Of a DNA stretch of 64,000 nucleotides, positions 2,807-64,000 are shown piece by piece. The first letter of the stretch is position 1. Every line of letters begins with the position of its first letter. Made by a program: the position numbers and the translations under genes. This stretch comes from Acidimicrobiia bacterium (GTDB lineage: Bacteria; Actinomycetota; Acidimicrobiia; Spongiisociales; ZC4RG35). The notes under the pieces are model-generated. The model saw nothing but the letters and a program-made list of their open reading frames with translations. It ran no database searches and was not told the origin of the DNA. The DNA is taken from contig JBBDHV010000031.1 of the NCBI GenBank assembly GCA_040880725.1, forward strand, positions 9,652 to 73,651. The letters are read 5' to 3'.

Positions 2807-2884
2807 CCAGTTCTCCCTGAGCCGAAACAGAGGCCGTCGACTTTCGTCGGCGGCCCCTGAACCTAGCTCTCGATCAAGTCGGCG

Positions 2885-4015: not shown

Positions 4016-4084
4016 ATGGATTCTCTTCCTTCGTCGTGGGAACGCGGCCGAGCCGGCTCAGTCCTTGAGGGTGCCCTTCCGCGT

Positions 4085-4114
4085 ATGACAAGGCTACGAG
4101 AAAATGATGTCAAG
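4085..4114 (-). promoter_or_regulatory. Candidate Pho-box-like direct repeat upstream of phnD
   Basis: On the phnD coding strand: CCTTGACAT-N12-CCTTGTCAT (plus strand ATGACAAGG at 4085 and ATGTCAAGG at 4106, 21-nt period), 70-100 nt upstream of the phnD start. It resembles the CTGTCAT repeat of enterobacterial Pho boxes. Assignment is speculative. Confidence 0.25.
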
Positions 4115-4145
4115 GTTGAAAACGGATGGGAAACGTTTTTCGCGG

Positions 4146-4688: not shown

Positions 4689-4705
4689 CCCGTCGAGGGT
4701 ACGGG

Positions 4706-6304: not shown

Positions 6305-7089
6305 GACACCGCTCCCCGCTCGTCATCGCCGCCGACGGCTGCAATGAAGGCATCCTCGATCGTGTCGACTCCGAAACGGTCGCACAGTTCGCTTTGGGTT
6401 CCCTCGAGTGCCAGCCGGCCATGAATCATGATTCCCACCCGGGTGCAGAGCCGTTCGACGAGATGCATCTCGTGGGCGGAGAACACGACGGTCGCACCTC
6501 CCTCGGTGTAGCGGACGAGGAGTCGCTGGATCAGCCGCGCGCTGAGCGCGTCCACCCCTTCGAAGGGTTCGTCGAGGAACAGCACATCGGGGCGGTGGAT
6601 GATCGCGGCTGCCAGCGCCACCTTCTTGCGCATCCCTCGGGAGTAATCACCGACCAGCTTGCCGGCCTCCTCGGAGAGGTCGAGAAGGGCGAGGAGTTCG
6701 TTGCGTCTCGAGAACGCCACGTCACGCTCAAGGCCGTGCATGGCCGCTGTGAAGTCGAGGAGCTCGGCACCGGTGAGCCGTTCGTAGAGGTTGAACTCCT
6801 CCGGGAGCACTCCGATGCGGCGCTTGACCTCGATCGGTTGACGCCACGTGTCGAACTCACCGATCCCGGCTCTGCCTGCCGTCGGGCGGAGGAGGCCGAC
6901 GATCATCTTGATGGTGGTGGTCTTGCCGGCGCCGTTCTGGCCGAGGAGTCCGTAGAACTCGCCGGGCTGAATGGCCAGGTCGAGACCGTCGACGGCAGGC
7001 GCCTTGCCGAAGCGGCGGACGAGGCCCTTCGCCCAGACGGCTGGGAGATTCCCCGGCGGTGTGGAGTCTCCGTGCTGAGTTTCCGTCAT
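6280..7089 (-). CDS. ABC transporter ATP-binding protein
   Basis: Start set at MTETQHGD (cat 7087-7089). Walker A GQNGAGKTT and Walker B LFLDEPFEGVD. Confidence 0.85.
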   Translation of the reverse strand: MTETQHGDSTPPGNLPAVWAKGLVRRFGKAPAVDGLDLAIQPGEFYGLLGQNGAGKTTTIKMIVGLLRPTAGRAGIGEFDTWRQPIEVKRRIGVLPEEFNLYERLTGAELLDFTAAMHGLERDVAFSRRNELLALLDLSEEAGKLVGDYSRGMRKKVALAAAIIHRPDVLFLDEPFEGVDALSARLIQRLLVRYTEGGATVVFSAHEMHLVERLCTRVGIMIHGRLALEGTQSELCDRFGVDTIEDAFIAAVGGDDERGAVSWLHDSPG

Positions 7090-7540
7090 CGTCACCCGCC
7101 ATCCATCGGCACGCCGTCGGGGTGTCTGAACCAACACGGCAGTTGGCAAACGGTTGTCATCGATGGACGAAGCTAGTGGTGCGCCGCCGAAACAATGAGG
7201 CGGTCTTTCCTTTCCGGCCCATGACGCCCCTGGCGGCGTCCTCCTCCTCGCCGAACGGGCCAAGTAGCTGACGGATTGGGTGAGCTGCGAGCCCCATCCG
7301 TCGGCTTCCCGCCCGAAAGCGAAGCTTTTTCGGGCGGAACAGAGAAACAGTCGGCGAAGCCGGCCCGCCTATCCGCTGACCCTGAAGTGCGACTGCGTCG
7401 GAAGTCCTTGCCAGATGACGCCATGTGCTCGGAGACACCGCGCACCTCTTTCGGCGACACACCACCAGGCCATCGGGTCCCCAACGCGACATCGATGCGC
7501 CACGATCCATGTGTCCGAGCCGCCCGGTACTCTCGCCTTC

Positions 7541-9373
7541 GTGGATTATCAGGCGCTCTATCGGCGGTACCGACCCCAGACATTCGACGACGTCATCGGC
7601 CAGTCCCACGTGACGACCACCCTTGCTCGCGAGGTTGCCGACGGCCATGTCGCCCATGCCTACCTGTTCGCAGGCCCCCGTGGCACGGGCAAGACGACCA
7701 CCGCACGCATCCTCGCCAAGGCCCTGAACTGCGAGAAGCGAAACCCCGACGGGAGTCCCGACAACGAGTGCGGGTCGTGCGTGGCGATCACCGAGGGTTC
7801 GTCGCTCGACGTGATGGAACTCGACGCGGCAAGCCACAACAGCGTCGAGGACATCAGGGAGATGCGGGTGAGCGTGTCCACGGTTGCCTCGGCCGCCACG
7901 GGTCGGCGCGTCTTCATCCTCGACGAGGCGCACATGCTCTCCAAGGCGGCCGGCAACGCCCTGCTCAAGACACTCGAAGAGCCCCCCGAGCACGTGCATT
8001 TCGTCCTCGCCACCACCGAGCCGTACAAGCTGCTCGACACCATCCGCAGCCGGTCGCAGCGGTTCGACTTCCACTCGGTGCCCATCGAAGGCCTGGCCGC
8101 TCACCTGTCCAAGATCGCCGATCTCGAAGGTTTCAAGACCGAGCCGGCTGCGCTGGTGGCGGTGGCCCGCCATGCCACCGGCTCGGTCCGGGACTCGCTG
8201 TCGCTGCTCGAACAGGTCGCCGCGCTGGGCGACGGCACCGTCGATCTGACCGGTGTCGGGCGTGCACTGGGGCTGGCGGACGCGGAAGCCTTCGAGGTGC
8301 TCACCTCCGCGGTGAGCGAACAGGACGCCAGGAAAGGCCTCGAACTGGTTGCGCGGATGGCCGCCCAGGGCGTCGATCTCCGCCGGTTCGCGTCGGAGTC
8401 CGTCGGTTTCTTTCGGGGGGTGTTCCTCGCTCACTACGCCCCGAACCTCGCCGAGGTCGCCGACGAGCCTGCCGAAGTGCTCGAGTCATGGCGGAAGGCC
8501 GCGTCTCGGCTCCCGGCCTCGGAGGTCGTCCGGGCAGTGGATCTGCTGGGTGATGCGCTCGTGAAACTTCGGGAAGGTCGCGAGGAGCGCCTGATGCTGG
8601 AGTTGGCGATGATCAAGCTCACCCGCCCCGAGACGACGAATGACCCTGCGGCGATGCTCGCGCGTCTCGACCGCCTCGAACGCCTCGCCAAGACCCAGAG
8701 CCTGGGCGCCCCGGCGCCCTCTGCCGCCCCTGCATCCACGACCGCATCGACTCCCGCCCAGTCGTCCCCCGCGCCTGAGCGTGCGCCCGAGAACGCCGCT
8801 GCGGCCCCGTCGGCCGCGGCCGCAGCGCAGCCCGAAACTGCGCCGAGCCCGGCTCCCGAGACCGCTGCCGAACCTTCGATCGAAGACGAGGCTCGTCCGT
8901 TGGCGGGTGAGCCCGCCGAACCGCCTCCTCCGGCCACTGTCACGATGGAATCCTTCCGCTCGATCTGGCCGGGGTTGTTCGGTGGACTCCGCGAACTCCT
9001 TGGGGCGCGTCGCTGGGCGCTCTTCCGGGAGACCGAGCCCGGCGGGGTGGAAGGGTCGACCCTCATCATCCATGTCCGCCACGACTTTCATCTCGAATCG
9101 TTGAAGGGCGACCCCGCAGTCGCCGCGGTGGTGGCGACCAAGGCCGGTGACCTCCTCGGCGGGACGGTGTTCGTCCAGTTCCGGCCGGCCGACGGCACCG
9201 CCGCGGGCTCCGGCTCCGAGGGTTCCAGTCTCTCGGAGAGTCCAGTCGACGAATCGGAGGGCGAAGTCCCCGACAAGGACTCGATGGCCGAAGCGTCCGC
9301 GGAGTCCACCGACCCCTTCAAGCTGGTCGAAGACGAGCTGGGCGGCACCGTCATCGACGAGTTCGACACCTAG
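7541..9373 (+). CDS. dnaX: DNA polymerase III subunit gamma/tau
   Basis: GTG start giving VDYQALYRRYRPQTFDDVIGQ. Walker A GPRGTGKTT, zinc module CGSC, and a Pro/Ala-rich linker. Canonical dnaX-ybaB-recR order. Confidence 0.9.
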   Translation: MDYQALYRRYRPQTFDDVIGQSHVTTTLAREVADGHVAHAYLFAGPRGTGKTTTARILAKALNCEKRNPDGSPDNECGSCVAITEGSSLDVMELDAASHNSVEDIREMRVSVSTVASAATGRRVFILDEAHMLSKAAGNALLKTLEEPPEHVHFVLATTEPYKLLDTIRSRSQRFDFHSVPIEGLAAHLSKIADLEGFKTEPAALVAVARHATGSVRDSLSLLEQVAALGDGTVDLTGVGRALGLADAEAFEVLTSAVSEQDARKGLELVARMAAQGVDLRRFASESVGFFRGVFLAHYAPNLAEVADEPAEVLESWRKAASRLPASEVVRAVDLLGDALVKLREGREERLMLELAMIKLTRPETTNDPAAMLARLDRLERLAKTQSLGAPAPSAAPASTTASTPAQSSPAPERAPENAAAAPSAAAAAQPETAPSPAPETAAEPSIEDEARPLAGEPAEPPPPATVTMESFRSIWPGLFGGLRELLGARRWALFRETEPGGVEGSTLIIHVRHDFHLESLKGDPAVAAVVATKAGDLLGGTVFVQFRPADGTAAGSGSEGSSLSESPVDESEGEVPDKDSMAEASAESTDPFKLVEDELGGTVIDEFDT

Positions 9374-9384
9374 CCCGCCGACCG

Positions 9385-9476
9385 CCCCGCGTACCCTGGG
9401 TTCCCGGGGCGCTCAGGGTGCCCCGCCAACCCTGGGTTCCCCAGTCACTCACGGTGCCCTGCGAGCCCACGGTTCG
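9385..9476. repeat. Dispersed intergenic palindromic element, two core copies
   Basis: Cores TACCCTGGGTTC (9392-9403) and CAACCCTGGGTTC (9428-9440). GCCCACGGTTCG (9465-9476) begins 31 nt after the start of GGGTTC in the second core. Same architecture as at 14936-15018. Confidence 0.6.
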
Positions 9477-9561
9477 TCAGGAGAGAGGTGTGACGCGAAC
9501 GCGCGGACAGCGCGCGGCTGACCGGTACGATCAGGGCCCGGTACTCGACGAGGAACTCACA

Positions 9562-9888
9562 ATGAACCGCCCACCCAACATGCAGCAGATCATGAAGCAG
9601 GCCCAGCAGATGCAGGAGCAGATGATGACGGCCCAGGCTGAGCTGGCCGACATGACGTTCGAGGGGACCGCCGGCGGGGGCGTGGTGAAGGCGACCGTCA
9701 AGGGCTCCAACGAGCTGGTCGCCGTGGAGATCGCAGCCGACGTGATCGACCCGTCGGATCCGGAAATGCTGCAGGATCTGGTCGTGGCGGCGGTGAACGG
9801 TGCGATGCGCGCCGCATCCGAAGCGGCCGAAGAGCAAATGGGTGGACTCGCCGGCGGGCTCGGAGGCCTGGGCGGTCTGCTCGGCTGA
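9562..9888 (+). CDS. ybaB: Nucleoid-associated protein YbaB/EbfC
   Basis: MNRPPNMQQIMKQAQQMQEQMM...VKATVKGSNELV, typical of the YbaB family. Positioned between dnaX and recR. Confidence 0.9.
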   Translation: MNRPPNMQQIMKQAQQMQEQMMTAQAELADMTFEGTAGGGVVKATVKGSNELVAVEIAADVIDPSDPEMLQDLVVAAVNGAMRAASEAAEEQMGGLAGGLGGLGGLLG

Positions 9889-10481
9889 TGTACGAAGGCC
9901 CGCTCCAGCGCGTAGTCGACGAGCTGTCACGACTCCCGGGCATCGGTGGCAAATCTGCCCAGCGCATCGCCTTTCACCTTCTCAGCATCGCCGACGAGGA
10001 TGCTCGTCGTTTGGGTCAGGCAGTGCTCGACCTGCGTGATCAGGTCCGCCACTGCCGCCGCTGCTTCAACGTCACCGTGTCCGACGAGTGCACCATCTGT
10101 CGCGACGCCCGGCGGGACACGGCCGTGGTCTGCGTCGTGGAACGGCCCCAGGACATCATCGTCGTGGAGAAGACCCAGGAGTATCGGGGCCTCTATCACG
10201 TGCTGGGAGGATCACTCTCTCCCATCAACGGGATCGGCCCTGATCAGCTGCGCATCCCCGAGCTTCGCCAGAGGGTGTCCCAGGAGACCCTCACAGAGAT
10301 GATCATCGCCACGAATCCCACGATGGAAGGCGACGCCACCGCGATGTACCTGGCGAAGGAGTTCAAACCGAAGGGTCTGCGCGTGAGCCGCCTCGCCAGC
10401 GGACTTCCCGTCGGCGGGGACCTGGATTACGCCGACGAACTCACCCTCGGCCGCGCCCTCGTCGGACGCATGGAGATGTAG
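9888..10481 (+). CDS. recR: Recombination protein RecR
   Basis: C4 zinc finger CRRC...CTIC, Toprim region, and LASGLPVGGDLDYAD at the C-terminus. Confidence 0.95.
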   Translation: MYEGPLQRVVDELSRLPGIGGKSAQRIAFHLLSIADEDARRLGQAVLDLRDQVRHCRRCFNVTVSDECTICRDARRDTAVVCVVERPQDIIVVEKTQEYRGLYHVLGGSLSPINGIGPDQLRIPELRQRVSQETLTEMIIATNPTMEGDATAMYLAKEFKPKGLRVSRLASGLPVGGDLDYADELTLGRALVGRMEM

Positions 10482-10490
10482 CCAACTCGG

Positions 10491-11561
10491 ATGCGCGTCC
10501 TGCTCATCGAGCCGTACTTCGGAGGCTCCCATCGGGTGTGGGCGGAGGGATACGCTGCTGCCTCAGGTCACGAAGTGACGATCGTGAGTCACGCCGCCCG
10601 CGGGTGGACCTGGCGCATGCGCGGCGCCGCGGTGACGCTTGCCCGCCAAGTGGCAGAGCTCGCCTCGACCGGGTATCGACCGGATGTGGTCCTGGTCTCG
10701 TCCATGGTGGACGTCGCGGCCCTGCGAACCTTCCTTCACCCCTCGATCGGCCGACCACCGCTCGCGGTGTACTTCCACGAGAACCAGCTCACCTATCCCA
10801 TCGGTCCGCGGCAGAAGCCCGATGCGTCCTTCGCGTTGCTCAACTGGACGTCCGCGCTCTCGGCCGACCGCGTCTACTTCAACAGCGGCTACCACCACGA
10901 TGTCTTCTTCGCCGAGATCCGCCGACTGCTCGAGAGCTTCCCGGACCACACGCACGCCGGGTTCGTCGGCGAGGTCGAGGAGCGTTCGGCGGTGCTCCCC
11001 GTTGGTGTCGATTTGCATTGGGCGTCCGCGCAGCCTTCACGAAGCGGGACGCCGCTCGTGCTCTGGAACCATCGATGGGAACACGACAAGGATCCTGAGT
11101 CGTTCGCCGACGGAATCCGGGCGGTCGCCGAGACCCACCGTTTCCGTTTGGCGCTCGCCGGGGAGCGGTTCGGAACCGTTCCCGGCGTACTCGACGAGGT
11201 GGCATCCGAGATGGCCGACCGCATCGAGGTGAACGACCACCTCGATGTCGACGGGTATCGGGCGCTGCTGCTTCGCAGTGACATCGTCGTGAGCACCGCC
11301 CTGCAGGAGTTCTTCGGCATCAGCGTCGTCGAAGCGATCGCTGCCGGCGCCCGGCCCGTGTTGCCGCGTCGGCTGTCCTACCCATGGCTGATCCCGGAGA
11401 GCCATCATGAGTCCGTGCTGTATGAACCAGGGGCCTTCGCTTCGGCGTTGCGAATCGCCCTCGATCATCCGTATGCGCCCGACGGTCTCCGCTCATCGAT
11501 GTCGACGTTCGACTGGAGCGTGATTGCGCCACGGTATGACGCCGCCCTGGAGGTCTTGTGA
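10491..11561 (+). CDS. DUF3524 + GT1-family glycosyltransferase (homolog of the eukaryotic GTDC1 tRNA-queuosine mannosyltransferase family)
   Basis: N-terminus MRVLLIEPYFGGSHRVWAEGY and a C-terminal GT-B motif EFFGISVVEAIAAG. Family assignment is from memory of the DUF3524 architecture. Confidence 0.65.
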   Translation: MRVLLIEPYFGGSHRVWAEGYAAASGHEVTIVSHAARGWTWRMRGAAVTLARQVAELASTGYRPDVVLVSSMVDVAALRTFLHPSIGRPPLAVYFHENQLTYPIGPRQKPDASFALLNWTSALSADRVYFNSGYHHDVFFAEIRRLLESFPDHTHAGFVGEVEERSAVLPVGVDLHWASAQPSRSGTPLVLWNHRWEHDKDPESFADGIRAVAETHRFRLALAGERFGTVPGVLDEVASEMADRIEVNDHLDVDGYRALLLRSDIVVSTALQEFFGISVVEAIAAGARPVLPRRLSYPWLIPESHHESVLYEPGAFASALRIALDHPYAPDGLRSSMSTFDWSVIAPRYDAALEVL

Positions 11562-12208
11562 TCCGACATGTCGTCTGGGACTGGAACGGAACCCTCTTCG
11601 ATGACTTCCACCTCGTGGTCGACGCGGTCAACGTTGGTATCGCACCGATCGGCATCGGTCCGATCACCGCCGACGACTACCGGACGCACTACACGCGCCC
11701 GGTGAAGCTGTTCTATGAGCGACTTGCGAAGAGACCGATCAGCGACGCCGAATGGCGCGACCTCGATCGGCGATTCCATGACGCGTACCGCGAGCGCGTT
11801 CTGACAGCTGGACTGTCTCGGGACGCCCACGAAGCGCTGGTTGCCGTCACGGAGGTGCCGGCGGACCAGTCACTGCTTTCGATGTTCCCCCACACCGAAC
11901 TCCTGCCGCTCGTGGACCGGCTCGGCGTGACGTCGTTCTTCCGCCGAATCGACGGTCTCCGGGGCGAACCGGGAGCGCAGAAGGCGATGTTTCTCGAAGC
12001 GCATCTCAAGGAGCTGATGCGGCATGAGGATCCGGGGTCGGTGTTGCTGATCGGCGACGCGACGGACGACGCGCGGGCGGCGGCCCATGTCGGAGCAGCC
12101 GCAGTGCTGGTGGACAACGGCTCCCATCATCGGGGCGGACTCGATGCGATGGGCGTACCCGTCGCCTCCACGCTGATCGAAGCCCTCCGAATGGGTGGCT
12201 TGGCATGA
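11558..12208 (+). CDS. HAD-family hydrolase (phosphoglycolate-phosphatase-like)
   Basis: Motif I VVWDWNGTLFDD and motif IV LLIGDATDD. 4-nt overlap with the upstream glycosyltransferase. Confidence 0.7.
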   Translation: MIRHVVWDWNGTLFDDFHLVVDAVNVGIAPIGIGPITADDYRTHYTRPVKLFYERLAKRPISDAEWRDLDRRFHDAYRERVLTAGLSRDAHEALVAVTEVPADQSLLSMFPHTELLPLVDRLGVTSFFRRIDGLRGEPGAQKAMFLEAHLKELMRHEDPGSVLLIGDATDDARAAAHVGAAAVLVDNGSHHRGGLDAMGVPVASTLIEALRMGGLA

Positions 12209-23106: not shown

Positions 23107-23180
23107 CGGGACGTAGCGCAGCTTGGTAGCGCGCAGCGTTCGGGACGCTGAGGTCGTGGGTTCAAGTCCCACCGTCCCGA
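23107..23180 (+). tRNA. tRNA-Pro (anticodon CGG)
   Basis: Hand-folded cloverleaf: acceptor CGGGACG/CGTCCCG, D arm GCGC-AGCTTGGTA-GCGC, anticodon arm CAGCG-TTCGGGA-CGCTG, variable loop AGGTC, T arm GTGGG-TTCAAGT-CCCAC, discriminator A. 74 nt; CCA is not encoded. Confidence 0.9.
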
Positions 23181-23254
23181 CTCAGAGAAACACCAGGTCA
23201 GGGCCGCTCGATCGAGCGGCCCTCTGGTTTGTGAGGCCGGTTTCATCGCGCGTC
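23142..23254 (+). repeat. Direct repeat DR1 (tRNA-Pro 3' half + terminator + ~25 nt); putative att site
   Basis: Near-identical to 32564-32675. Identity begins inside the anticodon loop and runs through the T arm, acceptor 3' strand and terminator hairpin. Confidence 0.8.
23201..23230 (+). terminator. Rho-independent terminator of tRNA-Pro
   Basis: Perfect 9-bp stem GGGCCGCTC-gatc-GAGCGGCCC followed by TCTGGTTT. Confidence 0.6.
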
Positions 23255-23936: not shown

Positions 23937-23969
23937 TCCTGCGTACCCACCTTCGGAAGCGTCGGTTTC

Positions 23970-24245
23970 TCAGCCGGGCCGGTAGACGTTGCCACGATGT
24001 CCCACCCTCAACACGATCACCTCGTGGCGCTCGTCATCAATCCAATACAAGATTCGATACGTCCCGCGCCGGGCGCTCCACACCTTCAGTTCGCCTCGCA
24101 GGGGGGATCCGACCCACCTTGGACTGTCCGACAGGGGTCCGGTCATGAAGTCGATGACAGCGAATGCCACTGCCTCCGGCAGCACTTCGCGAATGGCCCG
24201 AGCGGCCGGGGCGGTGATGACGATCTCGTAGGGTCTGGCGCTCAC
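23970..24245 (-). CDS. RelE/ParE-family toxin
   Basis: GTG start (cac 24243-24245). 91 aa ending ...WSARRGTYRILYWIDDERHEVIVLRVGHRGNVYRPG, typical RelE/ParE. Confidence 0.8.
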   Translation of the reverse strand: MSARPYEIVITAPAARAIREVLPEAVAFAVIDFMTGPLSDSPRWVGSPLRGELKVWSARRGTYRILYWIDDERHEVIVLRVGHRGNVYRPG

Positions 24246-24399
24246 TGAGGCCGCAGGGCCTTCACAGCCTCGACACCACGCACCACATCGCCCGGAGCGA
24301 CTCAGTCGACATGGCCACAATTGTGCCACGCCGACTACAAGAATATGGAACAGCAACTCGAGCTCCGGTTCGCGAAATGAGCGGAGTCTGGGCTCGCTG

Positions 24400-24500
24400 G
24401 CTCGACCCTCCGGGCCTGTCTGGCTGGTGATGAGTCGGTCTGCGATGTCTTCAACGTCGAGACGTCCCTCCGCGACAGCCTGAACGAGCTGGATTGCTCA
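24400..24500 (-). pseudogene. Remnant of a doc toxin 3' end
   Basis: Minus-strand translation AIQLVQAVAEGRLDVEDIADRLITSQTGPEG parallels the C-terminus of intact Doc at 33793 (LDVAEGRLAVEQIAGRLITSQRSPKG). Nucleotide similarity to 33795-33900 is visible. Confidence 0.5.
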
Positions 24501-27350: not shown

Positions 27351-27451
27351 TACCACCTGGCAGCGGAAACGTACCCGGTCGGGTGATGTTCTCCGACGCC
27401 CTATGCGGCATAGTCGCAGACATGACCGCAGGCGACCCCGGGAGACAGCAC

Positions 27452-28276
27452 ATGAGCACCCAACGCACCCACTACGTGACCACCACCGACGGCGTCACCA
27501 TCGGTGGAACCGTACACGGCGAGGGGCCTCCGCTCGTGTTCCTGCAAGGGTCCATCGGCGATGGAGACCTCGATTGGCAAGCTGTGGTGGGGCACATGAC
27601 CAGCCGGTTCACTTGCCATCTGCCGAGCATGCGAGGCCGTGGCCTCAGTAGCGACCACCCCGATCTCAGCTTCGGTCCGGTCGTCGAAGACTTCCTCGCG
27701 TACGTCGACAGCATCGGGGAACCAACCGGACTGGTGGGTTGGTCCGCCCCGTATGGACTTGTCGCAGCGGCGCAGTCAGACGCCGTGGCCGCGGTGGCCT
27801 ACTTCGAGTCTTCGATGCTGAGCCTGATGGACGAGCAGGAACATGTGACTGTCGGCGCCATCTTCGCCCGCACGGGCGAGCTGGCCGCCGAAGGCAGATT
27901 GGTGGATGCGGCCCGGGCTTTCGCTGGTTTTCCCTTCAATGATGAGGAGATCGCCGTGCTCGAAGGCGCCGGCTACCTCGAGGCCGCAGGGCGCTACGTC
28001 CCGAACCTGCTCAACCACCTCCAGAAGGTGATGGAGCAGGGAGACCCCATCGCTGATCCGGCCGTGCTTGACGCAATTTCCGTTCCGGTGTTGGTGCTCC
28101 ACGGATCGGACACCAAGCGACTCTTCGCCTCCAGCGCGCAGACTGTGACCGACCGCGTCCCCGACGCCCGGGAGCAGAAGATCGCCGGCGCCGGGCACGC
28201 CGGCCCCCTCACCCATCCCGAGGCGCTCGCCGAAGCCTTCGCGGAGTTCTTCTCGTCAATTCAACAGCCGGCCTGA
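27452..28276 (+). CDS. Alpha/beta-fold hydrolase (paralog A)
   Basis: Start at MSTQRTHYV. PPLVFLQGS, nucleophile elbow GWSAPYG, LVLHGSDT, GAGHAGPLTHP. By eye about 60% identical to 36634..37464. Confidence 0.8.
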   Translation: MSTQRTHYVTTTDGVTIGGTVHGEGPPLVFLQGSIGDGDLDWQAVVGHMTSRFTCHLPSMRGRGLSSDHPDLSFGPVVEDFLAYVDSIGEPTGLVGWSAPYGLVAAAQSDAVAAVAYFESSMLSLMDEQEHVTVGAIFARTGELAAEGRLVDAARAFAGFPFNDEEIAVLEGAGYLEAAGRYVPNLLNHLQKVMEQGDPIADPAVLDAISVPVLVLHGSDTKRLFASSAQTVTDRVPDAREQKIAGAGHAGPLTHPEALAEAFAEFFSSIQQPA

Positions 28277-32443: not shown

Positions 32444-32563
32444 TCCATCGCGCGCCCATCGCGCGTGCACAGGCGTCTACGGCAGTCCGGAACAGTCTCC
32501 GCAGCGCTGAGACCTGGGGTTTCGGTCCGCAATGGTCCACCTCGATCCAAACCGGGAGCCTTT

Positions 32564-32675
32564 GGGACGCTGAGGTCATGGGTTCAAGTCCCACCGTCCC
32601 GACTCAGAGAAACACCAGGTCAGCCGCTCTTCGGGGCGGTCCTCTGGTTTTGTGAGGCCGGTTTCCCCGCGCGTC
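32564..32675 (+). repeat. Direct repeat DR2 (partial tRNA-Pro 3' half + terminator copy)
   Basis: GGGACGCTGAGGTCaTGGGTTCAAGTCCCACCGTCCCGACTCAGAGAAACACCAGGTCAG... matches 23142-23254 with a few substitutions and a rearranged terminator loop. Upstream sequence lacks an acceptor 5' strand and D arm, so this is not a functional tRNA. Confidence 0.8.
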
Positions 32676-32698
32676 CACCTTCCGAAGAGTCCGTTTTC

Positions 32699-32860
32699 TC
32701 AGCCGGGCCGGTAGACGTCGCCGCGATGTCCCACCCTCAACACGATGACCTCGTGGCGGTCGTCATCAATCCGGTAGAGGATTCGATACGTCCCGCGCCA
32801 GGCGCTCCACGCCTTCCAGCTCGCCTCGTAGAGAGGCTCCGACCCTCCCGAGATGAGGAC
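32699..32860 (-). pseudogene. relE/parE remnant (frameshifted, 5' part replaced)
   Basis: ...WSAWRGTYRILYRIDDDRHEVIVLRVGHRGDVYRPG matches the intact RelE at 23970. A 1-nt indel (ccttcCag vs ccttcag) breaks the frame upstream. Confidence 0.6.
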
Positions 32861-32906
32861 CGATGCCGTCCTTCTCGGCTGCATTGCGATTCGTTATGCT
32901 TTCCGT

Positions 32907-33155
32907 ATGACACAGCTCGTCGCCCGCATTGACAACGACCTGGCCGAGAGTATCGACCAGCTCGTCGCCGAAGGAGTCGTGGAATCTCGCTCGGACGCCG
33001 TCCGCAAGGGCCTCCAGGCGCTCATCGAACAAACCCGACGCCGCCGCACCGCTGAGGCGATCATCACCGGCTACACGGATCATCCCCAGACCGCAGACGA
33101 GGTCGCGTGGGCAGACCAGGCGACGGTACGGATGATCGCTGACGAACCATGGTGA
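32907..33155 (+). CDS. Ribbon-helix-helix antitoxin (MazE/CopG-like)
   Basis: MTQLVARIDNDLAESIDQLVAEGVVESRSDAVRKGLQALI. Overlaps the downstream PemK/MazF gene by 7 nt. Confidence 0.7.
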   Translation: MTQLVARIDNDLAESIDQLVAEGVVESRSDAVRKGLQALIEQTRRRRTAEAIITGYTDHPQTADEVAWADQATVRMIADEPW

Positions 33156-33460
33156 CACCCCGCCAAGGCGACATCTGGTGGGCCGAAGCCGAAGACAAGC
33201 GGCGACCTGTTCTGGTGGTGTCACGGTCCGAAGCCATCCCCGTGCTCAACTGGATCCTGGTCGCGCCCCTCACCCGAACCATTCGCGGCATCCCGACCGA
33301 AATCCATCTCGACCAAGACCACGGTGTCGACACACCCTGCGCGGCTGCCTTCGACAACCTCCAGCCCATCGGCAAGACATTCCTGACCTCACGAATCGGC
33401 TCGTTGCCGTTTCCGCGCCAAGAGATCTGCCGGACGCTCGCAGCCCTGGCCGACTGCTAG
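33149..33460 (+). CDS. PemK/MazF-family toxin
   Basis: PRQGDIWWAEAEDKRRPVLVVS...LVAPLTRTIRGIPTEIHL... is characteristic of MazF/PemK. Confidence 0.85.
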   Translation: MVTPRQGDIWWAEAEDKRRPVLVVSRSEAIPVLNWILVAPLTRTIRGIPTEIHLDQDHGVDTPCAAAFDNLQPIGKTFLTSRIGSLPFPRQEICRTLAALADC

Positions 33461-33592
33461 CGACGCTGTCGCCAGCGGGCGCCGGCGGTCGGCTCGTTGG
33501 ACTGATCTGGTCGACGTTGACTACTGGCCGGGCCGAGCCAAGCCCATTGGACGCCTGGGTCACCTGTCGATGGCTTGCCCGTTGTGCCGATC

Positions 33593-33762
33593 GAGCTCGA
33601 GTGGAGCACCTCGTCGGGGGCACTTGCCCAACTGCCCAGGCCGCCATCGATGCCCTCGTAGAGCGGGGGGAGCTGGCCGAGGTCACCGGCCGGGAGCGCG
33701 AAACCGGATCTACGAATCGTTCCGAATCTTTGACGCGGTGCACGGCCCCGGGGAGGTTACGT
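33593..33762 (+). pseudogene. Remnant of fic 3' end
   Basis: Nucleotide and amino-acid similarity to 32243-32410 (VEHLVGGTCPTAQAAIDALVERGELAEVTGRER vs VEHLLGVTRPTAQAAIDALMERGELAEVTGRER). A 2-nt indel (gggagcgCGaaacc) breaks the frame. Confidence 0.6.
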
Positions 33763-33792
33763 CGTGGGCGAAGCTGGCGTCCCGTGCGCTGA

Positions 33793-34176
33793 TCAGCCCT
33801 TCGGGGATCTCTGGCTGGTGATCAGCCGGCCCGCGATCTGTTCAACGGCGAGCCGTCCCTCGGCGACGTCGAGAACGAGTCCGAATGCCTCGTCGTCACC
33901 GAGATCGACGTTCTCCCCGTTGATGTCCAGGAAGACGGTGGTCGCCAGCCATCCGAGACGCTTGTTCCCGTCCACCAACGAGCGATTGGCCACTATCGAG
34001 TGCAACAGTGCCGCCGCTTTGAGTTGGAGAGTCGGATACGCATCGTCTCCAAATGCACTCGAACGAGGTCGGGACGCCGCAGAGTCGAGAAGGCCCAGAT
34101 CTCGTACGGGCCCGGCGCGAAGACGGCGCACGAGACCGAGGAGGTCTTCGAGCGTGAGATACTCGACCTCGGTCAC
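33793..34176 (-). CDS. doc: Doc (death-on-curing) family toxin
   Basis: Fic/Doc core HSIVANRSLVDGNKRLGW. GTG start with GTGA overlap on the upstream antitoxin stop. Confidence 0.85.
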   Translation of the reverse strand: MTEVEYLTLEDLLGLVRRLRAGPVRDLGLLDSAASRPRSSAFGDDAYPTLQLKAAALLHSIVANRSLVDGNKRLGWLATTVFLDINGENVDLGDDEAFGLVLDVAEGRLAVEQIAGRLITSQRSPKG

Positions 34177-36537: not shown

Positions 36538-36633
36538 GGCGTTGTTCCAGAGATCGACGAGTGAGCGGTCGAGGCCCGTTCTCGGCCCCCCTCGTATGGT
36601 GGCACTCACGACACACGACATGTGGGAGAGCGG

Positions 36634-37464
36634 ATGAGCAGCCAGCGCACGCATCACGGGACTTCCACCGACGGCGTCAGCATCGGCGGGACCGTGCACG
36701 GCCAAGGGCCGCCGCTCGTGTTCTGGCACGGTGCCTATGGCGATGGCGACCTTGATTGGCAGGCCCTGCTGCCGCATCTCACAGACCGGTTCACGTGCCA
36801 TTTGCCGAGTTGGCGAGGCCGTGGCCTCAGTGGCGACCATCCCGACCTCAGCTACGGCCGGCGCGTCGACGACGTCCTCGCCTACGTCGACAGTCTCGAG
36901 GAACCGACTGGACTCGTGGCCTGGTCCGGCGGTGCCAGCCCGGCTCTTGCCGCCGCGGCCCAGTCCGATGCGGTGAACGCCGTGGCCCCTTTCGAGCCCA
37001 CGATGGGAACCGTGATGGACGAGCACGACGGCGCGGCCATGCGCGTCGCCGTCGCCACCATGGGCGAACTGGCCGCACAGGGCAGGTTGACGGATGCACT
37101 ACGCGCGGCCGCCGACTTTCCCTTCACCGACGAGGAGGTCGGCGTGGCCGAGGACACCGGCTACTTCGCGGCCGCGGGGCGCTACGTCCCGAACCTGCTC
37201 GACGCCTTTCGGCAATTGATGGACTACGAAGGCCCGGTCGCCGATGATCCTTCCGTGCTGGCCACGATCTCGGCGCCCGTGCTCGTGCTGCACGGGGCGG
37301 AGACGAAGCCTTTCTGGATCCGGAGCGCGCGACACGTCGCTGACCACGTCCCCAACGGTCGGATACAGGAGATCCCCACCGCCGGGCACGCCGCCCCGCT
37401 GACCCATCCCGAGGCGCTCGCCGGAGCACTCACCGAGTTCTTCATGGTCGGCCGGGGAGGGTGA
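36634..37464 (+). CDS. Alpha/beta-fold hydrolase (paralog B)
   Basis: MSSQRTHHGTSTDGVSIGGTVHGQGPPLVFWHG..., elbow AWSGGAS, LVLHGAETK, TAGHAAPLTHP. Collinear with 27452..28276, including about 40 nt of upstream sequence. Confidence 0.8.
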   Translation: MSSQRTHHGTSTDGVSIGGTVHGQGPPLVFWHGAYGDGDLDWQALLPHLTDRFTCHLPSWRGRGLSGDHPDLSYGRRVDDVLAYVDSLEEPTGLVAWSGGASPALAAAAQSDAVNAVAPFEPTMGTVMDEHDGAAMRVAVATMGELAAQGRLTDALRAAADFPFTDEEVGVAEDTGYFAAAGRYVPNLLDAFRQLMDYEGPVADDPSVLATISAPVLVLHGAETKPFWIRSARHVADHVPNGRIQEIPTAGHAAPLTHPEALAGALTEFFMVGRGG

Positions 37465-59180: not shown

Positions 59181-59935
59181 AGATCCAACGGGTGCTCGCC
59201 CCCAACCCGGGTCCGTTCACCGGCCCGGGAACGAACACGTGGGTGGTGGGGGATGACCGCGAGGTGGTGGTCATCGATCCCGGTCCGGTCGAGAGTTCGC
59301 ATGCCGATGCCATCGAAGGGGTCATCGGCTCGAGAGTCGTCCAAGCCGTCATCGTCACTCACACCCACCCCGATCATGCACCGCTTGCCAATCCCCTGGC
59401 ACGGACGGTCTCCAGTCCCGCCCTGGGTCATGGACCGGGGCCTGACTTCGTGCCAGACGGGTTGCTGGTGGACGGCTCGGTGGTCGAGTTCGCCGGAGGG
59501 AGCCTGAGGGTCCTCTACACGCCGGGACACGCCGACGATCACCTCTGCTTCCAGATGGACAGGATGCTCTTCACTGGCGACCACATCATGGGAGGTTCAT
59601 CGGTGATGGTCGACGACCTGAGCCGGTACATGATTTCGCTCGAACGACTTCGTACCGAGAACTGGGAACGGATGTATCCGGGTCACGGTCCCGAGATCGA
59701 AGACCCTGGCACGGTCATCGACTGGTACATCGCTCATCGCCTGCAGCGCGAACGCGAGATCCTCGATGCAGTCACCGAGGGGTCGCATTCGATCGATGAG
59801 ATCGTGGCCGTCGTGTACGCAGAAGTCGACGTCGAACTGCATCCCCTGGCGGCGCGGAATGTAGCGACCCACCTGCGGAAGTTGGCAGCCGATGGCAGGG
59901 TGCGATTCGACGGCACCCTCGCCGAACCTGTCTGA
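59177..59935 (+). CDS. MBL-fold metallo-hydrolase
   Basis: HTHPDH (HxHxDH), later YTPGHADDH and GH motifs. 252 aa. Confidence 0.8.
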   Translation: MKIQRVLAPNPGPFTGPGTNTWVVGDDREVVVIDPGPVESSHADAIEGVIGSRVVQAVIVTHTHPDHAPLANPLARTVSSPALGHGPGPDFVPDGLLVDGSVVEFAGGSLRVLYTPGHADDHLCFQMDRMLFTGDHIMGGSSVMVDDLSRYMISLERLRTENWERMYPGHGPEIEDPGTVIDWYIAHRLQREREILDAVTEGSHSIDEIVAVVYAEVDVELHPLAARNVATHLRKLAADGRVRFDGTLAEPV

Positions 59936-59975
59936 CGGCCCTGGCCGAACGGCACCCGGTCCGTACACTCGCGAC

Positions 59976-61208
59976 GTGACACGGTCCCGCCCTCGCCCCA
60001 CCACCAGCCATAACGCGCGTCGCGCAGCGGGCGTGTCTGTCGTGTTGGTGCTGGCGTTGCTGGTCGGATCCGTTGCCGCGGCCGACACCGCCGAGGACAT
60101 CGCACAGGCCGAAACGGAACTGGCCGAACTCGAATCTCGGGCAGAGACGCTCGCCAGGCGAATCGAAGACGGGCGAGCGCGACACGCGGAATTGGAAGCT
60201 CGCGTCGCAACGCTCACCGACGCCCGGACGCTGATCGAGATCGACTTCGCCTCGGCCCTCGCCGATCTCGAGGACAGCGCGGTTCGCCTCTACATGGATG
60301 TGGCCGCAGGGGAGGGCGTCGCCGCCATGCTCATGTCGAGTGATGAGGTGTATGCCGCCGCCATTCAGTATCTGTCGACGGTCGCCGACGACTCCGAGAA
60401 CGCCCTCAACCGGCTGACGGCGATCGCGAGCGAGTTGGAACGACGCCGAGCAGAGCTGACCATGGCCCTCGACGAGCAAGCCGAGACCGACTCCGAGCTC
60501 GCAGCACTCGCTGCCGAGGTGACCCTCGCACTGGACCAGCAGACCGGTCGTCTCGAACGGCTGGAGGAGTTGCGTGCCCAAGAGCTGTTCCTCGCCACCT
60601 CCACCACCACCACGTCCACCACCACGACGCTCCCTCCGACATCGACGACGTCGACCGCCACGTCGACCACGACCGTCCCTTCCGAGACGACCACGGCGAG
60701 CACCACCACATCGACTTCCACGACCACGACATCGACTTCCACGACCACGACCACCCTCGCGCCCACGACGACCACCACCGCACCGCCCACCAGCGCGCCC
60801 TCAGGGGGTGGTGCGTGCCCGGTGACCGGTGCCGTCACTTTTGTGGACTCGTGGGGCGCCCCGCGCTCGGGCGGTCGATCCCATCAGGGGGTCGACATGA
60901 TCGCTTCCCGGGGCACGCCTCTCGCCGCCATCTACTCGGGCGTCATCCAGCGCACCTCATCGAGCACCCTCGGTGGAGTCAGCATCTGGATGGAGAGCAA
61001 CGCCGGTGACGTCTTCTACTACGCCCACCTCGAAGCCCACGCCGACGGGATCGCACCCGGGGTCGCCGTCAGCGAAGGACAGACGATCGGCTACAACGGC
61101 TCGAGCGGCAACGCCCCGGACTACCTGCCGCACCTCCACTTCGAATACCACCCGGGAGGTGGGGGAGCGGTGAATCCCTACCCGCTCGTGAAGTCGATCT
61201 GCGGTTGA
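59976..61208 (+). CDS. M23-family metallopeptidase with coiled-coil and Thr/Ser-rich linker
   Basis: GTG start before a signal-like VVLVLALLVGSVAAAD, then a long coiled coil. A ~70-aa T/S/P linker follows. M23 motifs HQGVDM and LPHLHFEYH. Confidence 0.8.
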   Translation: MTRSRPRPTTSHNARRAAGVSVVLVLALLVGSVAAADTAEDIAQAETELAELESRAETLARRIEDGRARHAELEARVATLTDARTLIEIDFASALADLEDSAVRLYMDVAAGEGVAAMLMSSDEVYAAAIQYLSTVADDSENALNRLTAIASELERRRAELTMALDEQAETDSELAALAAEVTLALDQQTGRLERLEELRAQELFLATSTTTTSTTTTLPPTSTTSTATSTTTVPSETTTASTTTSTSTTTTSTSTTTTTLAPTTTTTAPPTSAPSGGGACPVTGAVTFVDSWGAPRSGGRSHQGVDMIASRGTPLAAIYSGVIQRTSSSTLGGVSIWMESNAGDVFYYAHLEAHADGIAPGVAVSEGQTIGYNGSSGNAPDYLPHLHFEYHPGGGGAVNPYPLVKSICG

Positions 61209-61243
61209 ACACCGTTTGAACGGGGAAAGCCCCCCAAACGGAA

Positions 61244-61290
61244 GAGAGAGGGTCCGAAGGGGGAAATCGGGACCCTCTCTCTTTCGTTTG
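61244..61290 (+). terminator. Rho-independent terminator after the M23 peptidase gene
   Basis: 12-bp stem GAGAGAGGGTCC...GGACCCTCTCTC followed by TTTCGTTT. Preceded by a second hairpin, CCGTTTG...CAAACGG (61212-61241). Confidence 0.7.
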
Positions 61291-61455
61291 ACACGGGCGA
61301 CGAAAACGCCGATCCGTGTCGTGTCCAAAGCCGGGAGTTGCCCCTCGCCGACGTAAGGCACGTTCCCTCTCATCATCGGTCGCAAACACACCCACCCGTA
61401 CGGTGGTTCCAAACCCACCCAAAGTGACTAGTTCATTGTGCGGGGGGGCGACCCC

Positions 61456-61885
61456 CCTGCACCCCCGGACGGCGCGGCTGCCTCTTCGGGTTCGGCGGGG
61501 GTCTCACCCGATGACCCATGACGGGAACTGGTCGCGGCGGATTGGGACGCGTAGGAGCGACTCTTCGGAGCGTCTTTGTTCCCCTTGGGGGGAACCGGAC
61601 GGGGACACGCAGTGGACCGTTCGAAGGGGGGCGAGCACCCTGCGAGCGAGGCGAGGGCCCTGCACCCCCGCATGGCGTGGTTGCCGCGGTCGGGTTTGCC
61701 TGCGGTTCCACCCGATGGCCCATGACGGGAACTGATCGCGGAGATCTGGGACGAGTGGGAGGTGTCTCTTCGGAGCGAATTTGTTCCCCTTGGGGGGAAC
61801 CGGACGGGACACGCAGTGGACCGTTCGAAGGGGGGCGAGCGAGTTTGCGAGCGAGGCGGGGCCCTGCACCCCCCGTCGCGAGCGG
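61456..61885. repeat. Tandem ~204-bp noncoding repeat, about 2.1 copies
   Basis: CCTGCACCCCC recurs at 61456, 61659 and 61863. Conserved blocks ACCCGATGRCCCATGACGGGAACTGRTCGCGG and TCTTCGGAGCG..TTTGTTCCCCTTGGGGGGAACCGGACGGG(G)ACACGCAGTGGACCGTTCGAAGGGGGGCGAGC alternate with variable blocks. Perfect hairpin GTTCCCC-TTGG-GGGGAAC at 61578-61595 and 61783-61800. Confidence 0.8.
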
Positions 61886-61997
61886 AAGCGACCCCGTCTC
61901 TCACATCCACACGCGGGTCGAACCCGTCGAGATGCTCGCGGGGGAGGCCACCCCATCCTGGCTTCTTCTCTTCCGGGGGTGAGAAGTACGGGTGAGC

Positions 61998-63152
61998 CTA
62001 CGCAGGCAACGCTTCGCTGGTTTCCAGGGACTCGATGAGTTTGGCGATGCGGCCGGTGCAGGTCTCCATCTCGGCCGGGGGGAGAAGTTCCACCAGGCGG
62101 GCAGCGGCGGCTCCGAATGCCTCCGAGGCCGGATTTTTCGGGTGGCCGACGATGACCGGCTCGCCGTCGTCGCCGCCGGTGACGACAGCCGGATCCAGCG
62201 GGATGCGACCGATCAGCGGCACGTTGAGCGCAGCGGCGAGTTCGTCGCCGCCGCCGGACCCGAACAGCTTGTAGGTGGTGCCGTGCCCGCAGGTGAAGTC
62301 GGCCATGTTCTCCAGGACGCCGACGATGGGCATCGACGAACGCCGGGCCATGTCGGCCACGCGCACCGCCACCTTTTGGGCGGCCTTTTGTGGCGTCGTC
62401 ACCACGACCATCTCCGCCTGCGGGAGAAGGCGGGTGAGCGCCATCTGGATGTCGCCGGTCCCGGGCGGCATGTCGATGACGAGGTAGTCCAGCTCACCCC
62501 AGGCGACCTGCTTCAGGAACTGTTCGAGCGCCTTGGAGAGCATGAGTCCCCGCCACATGAGCGCGGTCTCTTCGGTTTCGATGATCAGTCCGGTCGACAC
62601 GACTTTGATGCCGTGCGCCTGGGCGGGCTCGATCAGGCGGGTGTCTCCGTTCGCCTCCATGCGCTCGGTCGCTCCCAGCATGCGAGGGATCGAGAATCCC
62701 CAGATGTCGGCGTCGAGGACGCCGACGCGAAAGCCCATCGCGGAGATGGCGAGTGCCAGATTCACGCTGGCGGACGACTTGCCGACGCCGCCTTTTCCGG
62801 AACTCACGGCGACGACTCGTGTCGTCGGGGAGACCTGGGTCGGTTCGGCGCTGTCCCGGGCACGCCGGCGGGCGACGGTCATCAGTTCGGAGCGCTGCTT
62901 CTTGGTCATTGCAGTGGTCTCCACGACCACGTCGGTCACACCGGGCATCGAGCGGATGCGGCGGGCGGTGTCGCCTTCGATCTGCGAGCGCATGGGACAT
63001 TCGGCGATCGTGAGCGCAATTCCCACAACCACCAACCCGTCGGGATCGATCTCGACGCCGGACACCATCCCCAGCTCGACGATGTTGCCCCCGAGTTCAG
63101 GGTCGACGACGCCTTTCAGCGCGTCGTAGACCTGTTCTTTCGTGGGTGTCAT
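61998..63152 (-). CDS. apbC: Mrp/ApbC/NBP35-family Fe-S cluster carrier ATPase
   Basis: Start at MTPTKEQVYDALKGVVDPELG (DUF59-like N-domain). Deviant Walker A SGKGGVGKSS. CxxC-like FTCGHG. Confidence 0.9.
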   Translation of the reverse strand: MTPTKEQVYDALKGVVDPELGGNIVELGMVSGVEIDPDGLVVVGIALTIAECPMRSQIEGDTARRIRSMPGVTDVVVETTAMTKKQRSELMTVARRRARDSAEPTQVSPTTRVVAVSSGKGGVGKSSASVNLALAISAMGFRVGVLDADIWGFSIPRMLGATERMEANGDTRLIEPAQAHGIKVVSTGLIIETEETALMWRGLMLSKALEQFLKQVAWGELDYLVIDMPPGTGDIQMALTRLLPQAEMVVVTTPQKAAQKVAVRVADMARRSSMPIVGVLENMADFTCGHGTTYKLFGSGGGDELAAALNVPLIGRIPLDPAVVTGGDDGEPVIVGHPKNPASEAFGAAAARLVELLPPAEMETCTGRIAKLIESLETSEALPA

Positions 63153-63270
63153 CGGTCGTTCCTCGGATCGCTGGCTTCTCAGTATGGAACGCCGTCGGTG
63201 GGGACGGGAATTCCATGTCGCCGCTGACGTTGTACCCTGGGAGGCACGACCGCACGCCAGAAGGATTCCT

Positions 63271-63636
63271 ATGTCGCAGTTGCTGAGTATCAAGTCGAAC
63301 AAGCCGCAGAAGGCGGTCGACGTGACCGACGCTGCCGCGGGCAAGATTCGTGAACTCCTCGAAAGCGAAGGGGACCCGAATCTCGCGCTCCGTATGGCAG
63401 TCCGCGCCGGAGGCTGCTCGGGTTTCTCCTATGAGATGTTCTTCGATGCGGAGGTCGAGTCCGGAGACATCGTCGAGGAATTCGACGAGGGGGTGCGCGT
63501 CGTCGTCGACTCGCAGTCCGTGGAGCATCTCCGCGGTTCGGTGCTCGACTACAAGGACGGCCTGATGGGCGCAGGGTTCGCCATCAACAACCCGAATGTC
63601 ACACGTTCCTGCGGGTGCGGCAACAGCTTCAGCTGA
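63271..63636 (+). CDS. erpA: HesB/IscA-family Fe-S insertion protein (ErpA-like)
   Basis: ...RMAVRAGGCSGFSYEM... and C-terminal NPNVTRSCGCGNSFS. Confidence 0.85.
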   Translation: MSQLLSIKSNKPQKAVDVTDAAAGKIRELLESEGDPNLALRMAVRAGGCSGFSYEMFFDAEVESGDIVEEFDEGVRVVVDSQSVEHLRGSVLDYKDGLMGAGFAINNPNVTRSCGCGNSFS

Positions 63637-63730
63637 GCCCGCCACCAGCATGTGCGAAGGCCCGCCGCTCGGCGGGCCTTCGTCGTTCGGGTCCCGTTAG
63701 CCTCCGCGGCACGCTCCCCAAGGAGGCCCT

Positions 63731-64000
63731 GTGCCGAAGACGATTCCTGCGCTGAAGAATGCTCCGACCCCAGTGGCGCCGTACTCGGTGGTCACCGAGG
63801 CGAACGGCTTCGTGTTCGTGTCAGGGCAGGTGGCACTCGACCCGGCCGGGGGACCCACTCCGGCAGACACCGCGGAGCAGGCGGACCTGGTGCTGCGCAA
63901 CATCGGTGCCATTCTCGACGAACTGGGTCTCACCTACGACGATGTGGTGAAGACCACGGTCTTCCTCGCGGACATCCGTGACTTCGCCACCGTCAACGAG
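63731..64000 (+). CDS. ridA: RidA/YjgF-family reactive-intermediate deaminase (3' end beyond window)
   Basis: GTG preceded by AGGAGG. VPKTIPALKNAPTPVAPYSVVTEANGFVFVSGQVALDP... Open at the window edge, so absent from the ORF track. Confidence 0.8.
   Translation, partial: MPKTIPALKNAPTPVAPYSVVTEANGFVFVSGQVALDPAGGPTPADTAEQADLVLRNIGAILDELGLTYDDVVKTTVFLADIRDFATVNE

Follow-up and report, generated by a model that had tools for sequence, protein, structure and literature searches.

The 64-kb window analyzed here (the whole stretch of DNA taken from contig JBBDHV010000031.1 of assembly GCA_040880725.1) comes from the metagenome-assembled genome (MAG) of an Acidimicrobiia bacterium in a sediment metagenome and contains a tandem array between the convergent genes for an M23 peptidase and Mrp/ApbC. 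The repeats of this array belong to a family that is multi-copy, modular, polar, and noncoding, that occurs at several loci, and that is absent from the orthologous loci of relatives. This uncultured bacterium probably has a lineage-specific family of modular extragenic repeats in many copies, of which the array is one locus. Four parts make up the family: the polar left end, which comprises ATTGTGC and a 25-nt G7/C6 hairpin; the core, of ~117 nt; an accessory module of ~105 nt, which is optional; and the right end, of ~70 nt.

Modular architecture and copy number of the repeat

Tandem Repeats Finder reported a repeat at 61455-61873 with a period of 204, 2.1 copies, 85% matches, 3% indels, and a score of 613, which agrees with the ~204-bp tandem repeat in 2.1 copies described in the initial annotation of this DNA. 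Sequence reading and alignment of the units placed the unit starts (CCTGCACCCCC) at 61456, 61659, and 61863, where that annotation had put them, and gave a unit period of 203/204 bp. The third start is present as claimed, but it continues for only ~12 nt before the array passes into a distinct right-end module. Two blocks are nearly invariant between the units. One is the 32-nt block A (ACCCGATGRCCCATGACGGGAACTGRTCGCGG), found at 61506 and 61710; the other, the hairpin block at 61576 and 61781, consists of the perfect hairpin GTTCCCC-TTGG-GGGGAAC plus GGACCGTTCGAAGGGGGG. The hairpin had been noticed in both units and indeed lies at 61578-61595 and 61783-61800. The block around it, originally given as ~75 invariant nucleotides, is near-invariant, but the alignment resolved it into 26 plus 35 identical bases split by one 1-nt indel and preceded by an identical CTCTTCGGAGCG. 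Block A and the hairpin block have no further copy in the window, where the chance expectation was 0 matches. The two units differ by five single-base indels, and the stretches between the conserved blocks are heavily substituted. Self-complementarity, which had also been proposed for these variable stretches, is kept locally, but we read the alignment and the folds as shifted registers and not as clean covariation. The + strand of the array is G-rich, with a GC skew of +0.16 to +0.18.

Copy numbers were estimated from the summed word depths of metagenome contigs placed on the locus and are not closed-genome counts. In the three source sediment metagenomes (X1, X2, and X3), the depth of the single-copy flanks was ~50, ~80, and 20 to 45, respectively. 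Summed depth over the 5' half of the units (61435-61551) was 1,500 to 11,000. Depth over 61435-61482 reached 2,700 to 11,800 in these metagenomes and peaked at 7,000 to 11,800 at 61453-61464, and the left motif with hairpin 1 (61440-61483) had depths of 5,040, 8,086, and 3,909 in X1, X2, and X3. Core copy 1 stood at 1,300 to 3,400 against a baseline of 50 to 80 (block A, 61507-61536, at ~2,200 to 3,400), core copy 2 at 1,000 to 2,000, the accessory module (61575-61635) at 300 to 900, or 5 to 10 times the baseline, and the right-end module (61875-61940) at 230 to 360, or 5 to 6 times the baseline. Hairpin 1 is the highest-copy part of the family, yet the repeated unit spans ~117 nt. The ratio of repeat to baseline was alike in X1 to X3, and in X4, which has practically none of the organism, repeat depth was low (~51 at hairpin 1 and 3 to 17 at block A).

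Depth changed in sharp steps, from 50 to ~3,000 at 61435, from ~950 to 58 over 61549-61555, from 45 to 270 at 61874-61880, and to 45 again at 61946. These steps delimit four modules, namely, the left motif with hairpin 1, the core (61435-61551), the accessory module (~61560-61640), and the right end (61875-61946). The 204-bp unit is a composite of one core and one accessory module, repeated twice. Joints at which contigs went back to an earlier position led from 61551 to 61443 (+14 nt), from 61547 to 61432 (+6), from 61550 to 61435 (+6), and from 61738 to 61435 (+22). They give a head-to-tail core period of ~122 nt, and all units are direct. Only 9 to 12% of the contigs placed on the locus continued into unlike sequence, which implies that most units sit inside arrays.

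The same modules were found in other surroundings. At least four more contigs carry the right-end module; each of them enters a different unique flank and has a depth that tracks the organism across runs (52.7/83.8/37.7, 44/69.5, 51.4/69.6, and 40/57). Joints from 61551 to 61875 and from 61730 to 61875 place the right-end module directly after core units at other loci. A second left end was recovered on a 629-nt contig with a depth of 48, where ATTGTGC comes right after ..GTGACTAGTTC, and the accessory module lies directly 3' of GATTGTGCAGGGG in other contexts in X5, X6, and X10. The core-plus-accessory junction itself is present in ~5 to 10 copies. From the summed depths, we infer ~5 to 6 arrays and ~40 to 55 core units per genome.

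According to a public run index, unrelated soil and sediment metagenomes contain a few of the 31-mers of the array, and contigs from unrelated metagenomes have 80 to 97% identity over parts of units, with different sequence on either side. The contig from X10, an unrelated sediment study, is 100% identical over 30 plus 67 nt of the conserved blocks, with a different intervening block; its 67-nt identity falls within accessory copy 2, and the adjacent variable block differs. The prospect raised at the outset that nothing would be conserved outside the strain is contradicted by the blocks in these other metagenomes.

The slot between the M23 and mrp genes

The array begins next to a conserved noncoding element, which we call the "pre" element. 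We collected 80 Acidimicrobiia mrp loci (~700 kb; individual loci are denoted by L numbers) and found the "pre" element in 35 of them, always after M23 (L007 5159-5303, L009 5161-5305, and L036 5239-5386, plus 31 more loci). It contains an invariant GGCACGTTC (61357-61365), a -10-like nAnnnT (61371-61376), TT, and the palindrome GTGACTAGT (61424-61432). Across the loci, nAnnnT stands 5 to 10 nt after GGCACGTTC, and a -35-like TTSNNA is separated by 16 to 17 nt from an ACTAG that lies within the palindrome GTGACTAGTCAC. The promoter-like arrangement TTSNNA-N16/17-TAGTYN is conserved in 29 aligned relatives; in the window, TTCCAA lies 16 nt upstream of the -10-like TAGTTC, and the array starts 7 to 10 nt after the latter. 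The "pre" element had no Rfam match and no RNAalifold consensus structure, and coding can be excluded because its spacings are not multiples of 3. The element belongs to the ancestral state of the locus and is probably a promoter/operator region or leader. A same-strand membrane/RDD-type gene follows it in most loci (e.g., L015 5856-6650 and L017 5280-5804), and the clade of the window keeps the "pre" element without this gene. The insert as a decayed copy of such a gene was tried as a candidate and rejected, tblastn being negative.

Searches with blastn and with nhmmer profiles found no copy of the core, accessory, or right-end module in the 80 mrp loci. In L007 and L009, whose Mrp proteins are 85 to 86% identical to that of the window, the region corresponding to 61243-61434 is kept, the ACTAGT palindrome lies 16 to 18 nt from the mrp stop codon, and the whole 61435-61997 insert is missing. 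The palindrome abuts the mrp stop codon in L062 (Mrp, 76%), with 0 nt between them, and in L004 and L006 the M23 and mrp genes are only ~45 nt apart. The segment at 61435-61946 is an insertion relative to the sister species. A contig in X1 (214175; depth, 58) from a related co-occurring strain or species with ~80 to 85% identity joins 61208 to 62029 and, like L004 and L006, has neither the "pre" element nor the array.

Two sister species carry other, seemingly unrelated G6/C6-rich arrays in the same ACTAGT-to-mrp slot, one with a period of 135 to 136 nt (L005, 5140-5578) and one with a period of 198 nt (L008, 4700-5075). Each combines a near-invariant block with a variable remainder, and both have G6/C6 hairpins and an inverted motif (GAGCGAAGCGAGC/GCTCGCTGCGCTC); only the short motif GAGCGARGCGAG is common to them and the window. 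The invariant part of the L008 array is a 61-nt block that is 97% identical between copies, and the contig ends inside the array. The L005 array includes the motif GAGCGCAGCGA, which may resemble the sequence of mycobacterial interspersed repetitive units (MIRUs). The slot next to the palindrome is thus one that has been filled repeatedly, in three related species with different arrays. Downstream of mrp in another Acidimicrobiia MAG (L035, 3692-3815), a further tandem repeat with 55-nt units (2.3 copies, 98% matches) runs into the contig end.

Table 1. Positions of the array modules and flanking features in the 64-kb window
Feature	Position	Strand	Description
M23 peptidase gene	59892-61208	+	Left neighbor of the array, convergent with Mrp/ApbC
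GC-rich hairpin	61243-61283	.	GAGAGAGGGTCC...GGACCCTCTCTC; 3' of the M23 stop codon; context, outside the repeat
"Pre" element	61295-61434	+	Noncoding, ~140 nt; after the M23 terminator hairpin; array begins immediately 3'
Left end	61435-61462	+	Unit-start motif ATTGTGC plus hairpin 1, GTGCGGGGGGG-CGA-CCCCCCTGCAC (61438-61462, 25 nt, inverted repeat)
Core module, copy 1	61456-61551	+	C-run, variable hairpin (61466-61503), block A ACCCGATGACCCATGACGGGAACTGGTCGCGG (61506-61537), GATTGGGACGCG
Accessory module, copy 1	61552-61658	+	C(UUCG)G hairpin, hairpin 61578-61595, CAC-GCA-GTG mini-hairpin, GTTCGAAGGGGGG, GCGAGCGAGGCGAG
Core module, copy 2	61659-61755	+	Without the 5' arm of hairpin 1; block A at 61710-61741; from unit alignment
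Accessory module, copy 2	61756-61862	+	Hairpin 61783-61800; from unit alignment
Third-unit start	61863-61874	+	CCTGCACCCCCC only; from sequence and unit alignment
Right-end module	61875-61946	+	Closing stem CGCGAGC (61877-61883)/GCTCGCG (61934-61940), inverted repeat
Single-copy spacer	61947-61997	.	Up to the mrp stop codon; baseline depth; hairpin CTTCTC-N10-GAGAAG (61965-61986)
Mrp/ApbC gene	61998-63152	-	Right neighbor of the array; stop codon 61998-62000

The right-end module additionally has two inner hairpins, GTCGC..GCGAC and CGGGT-CGA-ACCCG. The hairpin that follows the M23 gene looks like a bidirectional terminator, and 35 related loci have its equivalent behind their M23 gene. Within the M23 gene, 60595-60790 holds low-complexity ACC/ACG-rich tandem repeats that encode a Thr/Ser/Pro-rich linker whose length varies among relatives. 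Elsewhere in the window, a 36-nt tandem repeat (GCCCCGCCAACCCTGGGTTCCCCAGGCACTCACGGT; 2.1 copies, 82% matches) occupies 9384-9459. The 3' part of a tRNA-Pro(cgg) at 23107-23201 is repeated 9.4 kb downstream, at 32557-32623 (67 nt, 96%), and paralogous blocks recur at a spacing of ~9.2 to 9.4 kb (23963-24497 and 32692-33888; 27444-28252 and 36626-37443). The pattern resembles that of a tandem insertion of one or two integrative elements at tRNA-Pro.

Tests of coding, RNA, and assembly explanations

The view that the array is noncoding was borne out by the indels, by the ~122-nt period of the family, which is not a multiple of 3, and by the lack of protein homologs; a six-frame (chimeric) translation used as a protein query had no relatives among 5.8 billion clusters. 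As had been stated, the array does not serve M23 or mrp as a 5' leader either, since both genes are convergent and end at it. An Rfam E-value scan of 60000-64000 returned only noise (best overlapping match, whalefall-1 at 16.2 bits versus a gathering score of 37; E = 1.4), in line with the earlier failure to recognize a known RNA. A gathering scan of the whole window with Rfam 15 found only one tRNA, tRNA-Pro, and ARAGORN found only the tRNA-Pro at 23107.

The hairpin 22-mer had 0 exact matches in GTDB genomes and JGI metagenome contigs, and blastn found no match among plasmids and phages. A 19-mer from block A matched 24 JGI contigs and 1 viral contig, all of which proved on inspection to be unrelated coding sequence or chance matches. 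A CRISPR array, in which 23- to 50-nt repeats alternate with similarly sized but unrelated spacers, was considered and rejected: ~100 of 122 nt are conserved, and even the "variable" part is still ~65 to 70% alike between units. Also rejected was the antitoxin array of a type III toxin-antitoxin system, the units being 122/204 nt and the neighbors being an M23 peptidase and Mrp/ApbC, both of which end at the array. No terminators or promoters were seen inside the units. In the literature on Acidimicrobiia, we found no interspersed repeat family described and the motifs of this family in no paper. A match to a known repeat or insertion sequence (IS) fragment, one of the outcomes envisaged beforehand, did not emerge, and the family is undescribed.

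Short-read assembly through multi-copy sequence left no contig that spans from the unique left flank to the unique right flank, and contigs break at five sites (61466, 61515, 61551, 61742, and 61811-61814). Such breaks would be expected if an array of the family is really present here but its 2.1 x 204-bp form results from a misrouted walk through a repeat graph that had collapsed, so that the true number, order, or type of units may differ. The sister assembly GCA_040904385.1 (L001), of which we inspected 21 kb beside the window, points the same way. Between 61434-61625 of the window and 11495-11700 of this deposited MAG contig, the locus is identical save for 7 differences. All of these fall in unit 1, mostly at positions where copies of the family vary (e.g., 61461 +C, 61514 A/G, 61610 C/A, and 61621 T/C), a pattern that suggests that the assembler mixed different repeat copies into one consensus. 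We nevertheless judge a misassembled path to be quite unlikely, as the two assemblies have the same architecture, contigs at the depth of the organism tile every junction (61515-61651, 61622-61742, 61506-61712, 61715-61806, and 61814-62300), and core-plus-accessory junctions appear in several contigs. That an array is present here is certain, since contigs cover both of its junctions with unique sequence; the count of 2.1 and the order of the units are assembly inferences and are not secure. A purely local variable-number tandem repeat (VNTR), that is, a recent duplication of a ~204-bp spacer that is private to the strain and has no relatives elsewhere, would be in keeping with the mere 2.1 copies, with the absence of another copy from the window, and with the lack of matches in GTDB representative genomes, JGI metagenome contigs, plasmids, and phages. 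The depths and contexts observed refute this explanation, and we give it practically no credence: the depth of the blocks is 5 to 140 times that of the flanks, each source run has well over a hundred distinct contigs with differing contexts and joints, and the blocks occur in the metagenomes of other studies.

It is also possible, if unlikely, that the arrays are structured RNA genes, in which case a + strand multiunit precursor would be made from the promoter-like element ending at GTGACTAGTTC and processed to functional units of ~120 to 200 nt, such as a regulatory small RNA (sRNA) family, a type-III-antitoxin-like repeat RNA, or a guide or scaffold RNA. Near-invariant blocks do alternate with hairpins that retain pairing potential, there are UUCG tetraloops, the G-richness is limited to one strand, the arrays are polar with defined start and end modules, and this one starts just after the conserved -10-like TAGTTC. 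Folds of the + strand are far more stable than those of the - strand (-92/-90 versus -73/-68 kcal/mol), but G-richness alone explains the difference. Compared with dinucleotide shuffles, accessory copy 2 on the + strand folds better (z = -2.6), but it is the sole exception among six segments; whole units and core modules on either strand range from -0.9 to +0.8, and the whole-unit and core values of +0.5, -0.4, and -0.9 match shuffles. An 8-bp long-range helix (61473-61480/61529-61536) is kept between the units, with unit 2 pairing through one double change (C-G to U-A) plus wobbles, but its columns are invariant among the other copies of the family and there are only two full units to compare, so family polymorphism allows no covariation test and lends the helix no such support. 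There is moreover no Rfam family, no RNA-seq run that carries the sequence, no promoter or terminator within the units, and no partner gene evident in the neighborhood, and the element is dispensable at this locus in the sister species. The duplicated structured RNA gene proposed in the initial annotation is not supported, given folds that resemble shuffles in 5 of 6 segments, the absence of the array at the sister-species locus, and its makeup from two modules of a family, and the unclassified repeat element offered there as the alternative is supported by a dispersed, high-copy family at several loci of the same genome. A more specific proposal, that the arrays are transcription units read from the CTAG-palindrome/-10-like motif to give a long + precursor with ~120-nt structured units, each with a hypervariable hairpin, and a dedicated 3' end module, strikes us as improbable. 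If it is true, the Acidimicrobiia would have a novel kind of tandem RNA encoded in many copies, perhaps a processed regulatory/scaffold RNA or the RNA partner of a protein.

If, as we favor, the array is a locus of a lineage-specific extragenic repeat family, the family would behave as a nonautonomous, selfish or structural DNA element. Copies might reach new intergenic sites, possibly next to CTAG palindromes, through a trans-acting recombinase or transposase that recognizes the hairpin ends, or by recombination. The number of units would then shift by slippage or unequal recombination, and the near-identity of the blocks would be maintained by gene conversion even as the tips of the hairpins diverge. 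If the hairpins affect the host at all, for instance as a barrier to transcription or by stabilizing 3' ends where the M23 and mrp genes converge, this would be incidental.

Several observations weigh against this interpretation. No transposase domain was found among the 24 annotated genes of L001, and neither a mobilizing enzyme nor a gene like that of a RAYT (the tyrosine transposase associated with repetitive extragenic palindromic [REP] elements) was found in the 64 kb plus 21 kb. Terminal inverted repeats that would pair the left end at 61435-61462 with the right end at 61875-61946 are lacking; the sole perfect 10-nt inverted pair (61460/61972) has one arm in single-copy DNA. A target-site duplication is also missing, the left flank being ..GTGACTAGTTC and the right boundary having no CTAG or TAGTTC. 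Without terminal inverted repeats and a target-site duplication, the classical cut-and-paste mechanism of a miniature inverted-repeat transposable element (MITE) is unsupported. The extreme conservation of blocks in X10 could equally mean functional constraint. To judge from sequence features, the + strand G-richness, the C(UUCG)G tetraloops, the kept helix, and the promoter-like motif upstream would fit a + strand RNA, and in our reading the wobble pairs of the helix in unit 2 would work only on the + strand.

Significance and comparison with known repeat systems

Acidimicrobiia are abundant in soils, sediments, and sponges and are almost entirely uncultured. The family fragments MAGs, because contigs end in the repeat, and can create chimeric joins; it also offers a ready VNTR marker for strain typing. 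It revealed that insertions recur in a slot beside a conserved CTAG palindrome, and its ~50 natural variants of a hairpin-rich unit provide material for testing a mobilization mechanism or an RNA function. The class to which the family can be assigned is the generic one of interspersed extragenic repeats only, as a new family; the known systems that come nearest are BIME/REP clusters, MIRUs, and modular elements of the BOX type.

REP clusters and bacterial interspersed mosaic elements (BIMEs) of enterobacteria and pseudomonads are mobilized by RAYT transposases; the REPs are 20 to 40 nt long and alternate in orientation, and the cognate RAYT gene, for an IS200/IS605-like Y1 transposase, is flanked by REPs. 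Like them, the present family is extragenic, high copy, and hairpin forming, is a mosaic of a few conserved modules, lies typically at 3' ends and between convergent genes, is species specific, and breaks short-read assemblies. Unlike them, it has a unit of ~122 nt (or a 204-nt composite), all units are head to tail, and its left- and right-end modules are distinct. The MIRUs of Actinomycetota are also direct tandem intergenic repeats (there of tens to ~100 bp) that occur at many loci, vary in unit number, and are GC-rich. They lie within operons, however, oriented with the flanking genes, and carry small open reading frames that overlap the stop and start codons of their neighbors. Measured against that description, the array differs in its convergent genes, its frame-breaking indels, its longer units, and its terminal modules.

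Antitoxin repeats of the ToxI type, with units of ~34 to 45 nt directly upstream of a toxin gene (ToxN/AbiQ-type), and tandem sRNA genes, each with its own promoter and terminator, share with the array head-to-tail units, conserved sequence, and hairpins on one strand. None of their layout of genes, promoters, and terminators is present here, and ~50 copies per genome is a far higher number. MITE-type elements include Correia/NEMIS, ERIC/IRU, RUP, and BOX, the last of which is modular (boxA-boxB(n)-boxC). The family resembles these in its intergenic location in many copies, its length of 100 to 600 bp, its capacity to form long hairpins, and its probably nonautonomous nature; it differs in lacking terminal inverted repeats, a target-site duplication, and, in the blastn search of plasmids and phages, a related IS, and its sequence matches nothing in the collections searched. 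In its modular construction with a variable number of internal units, BOX is the closest architectural analogy.

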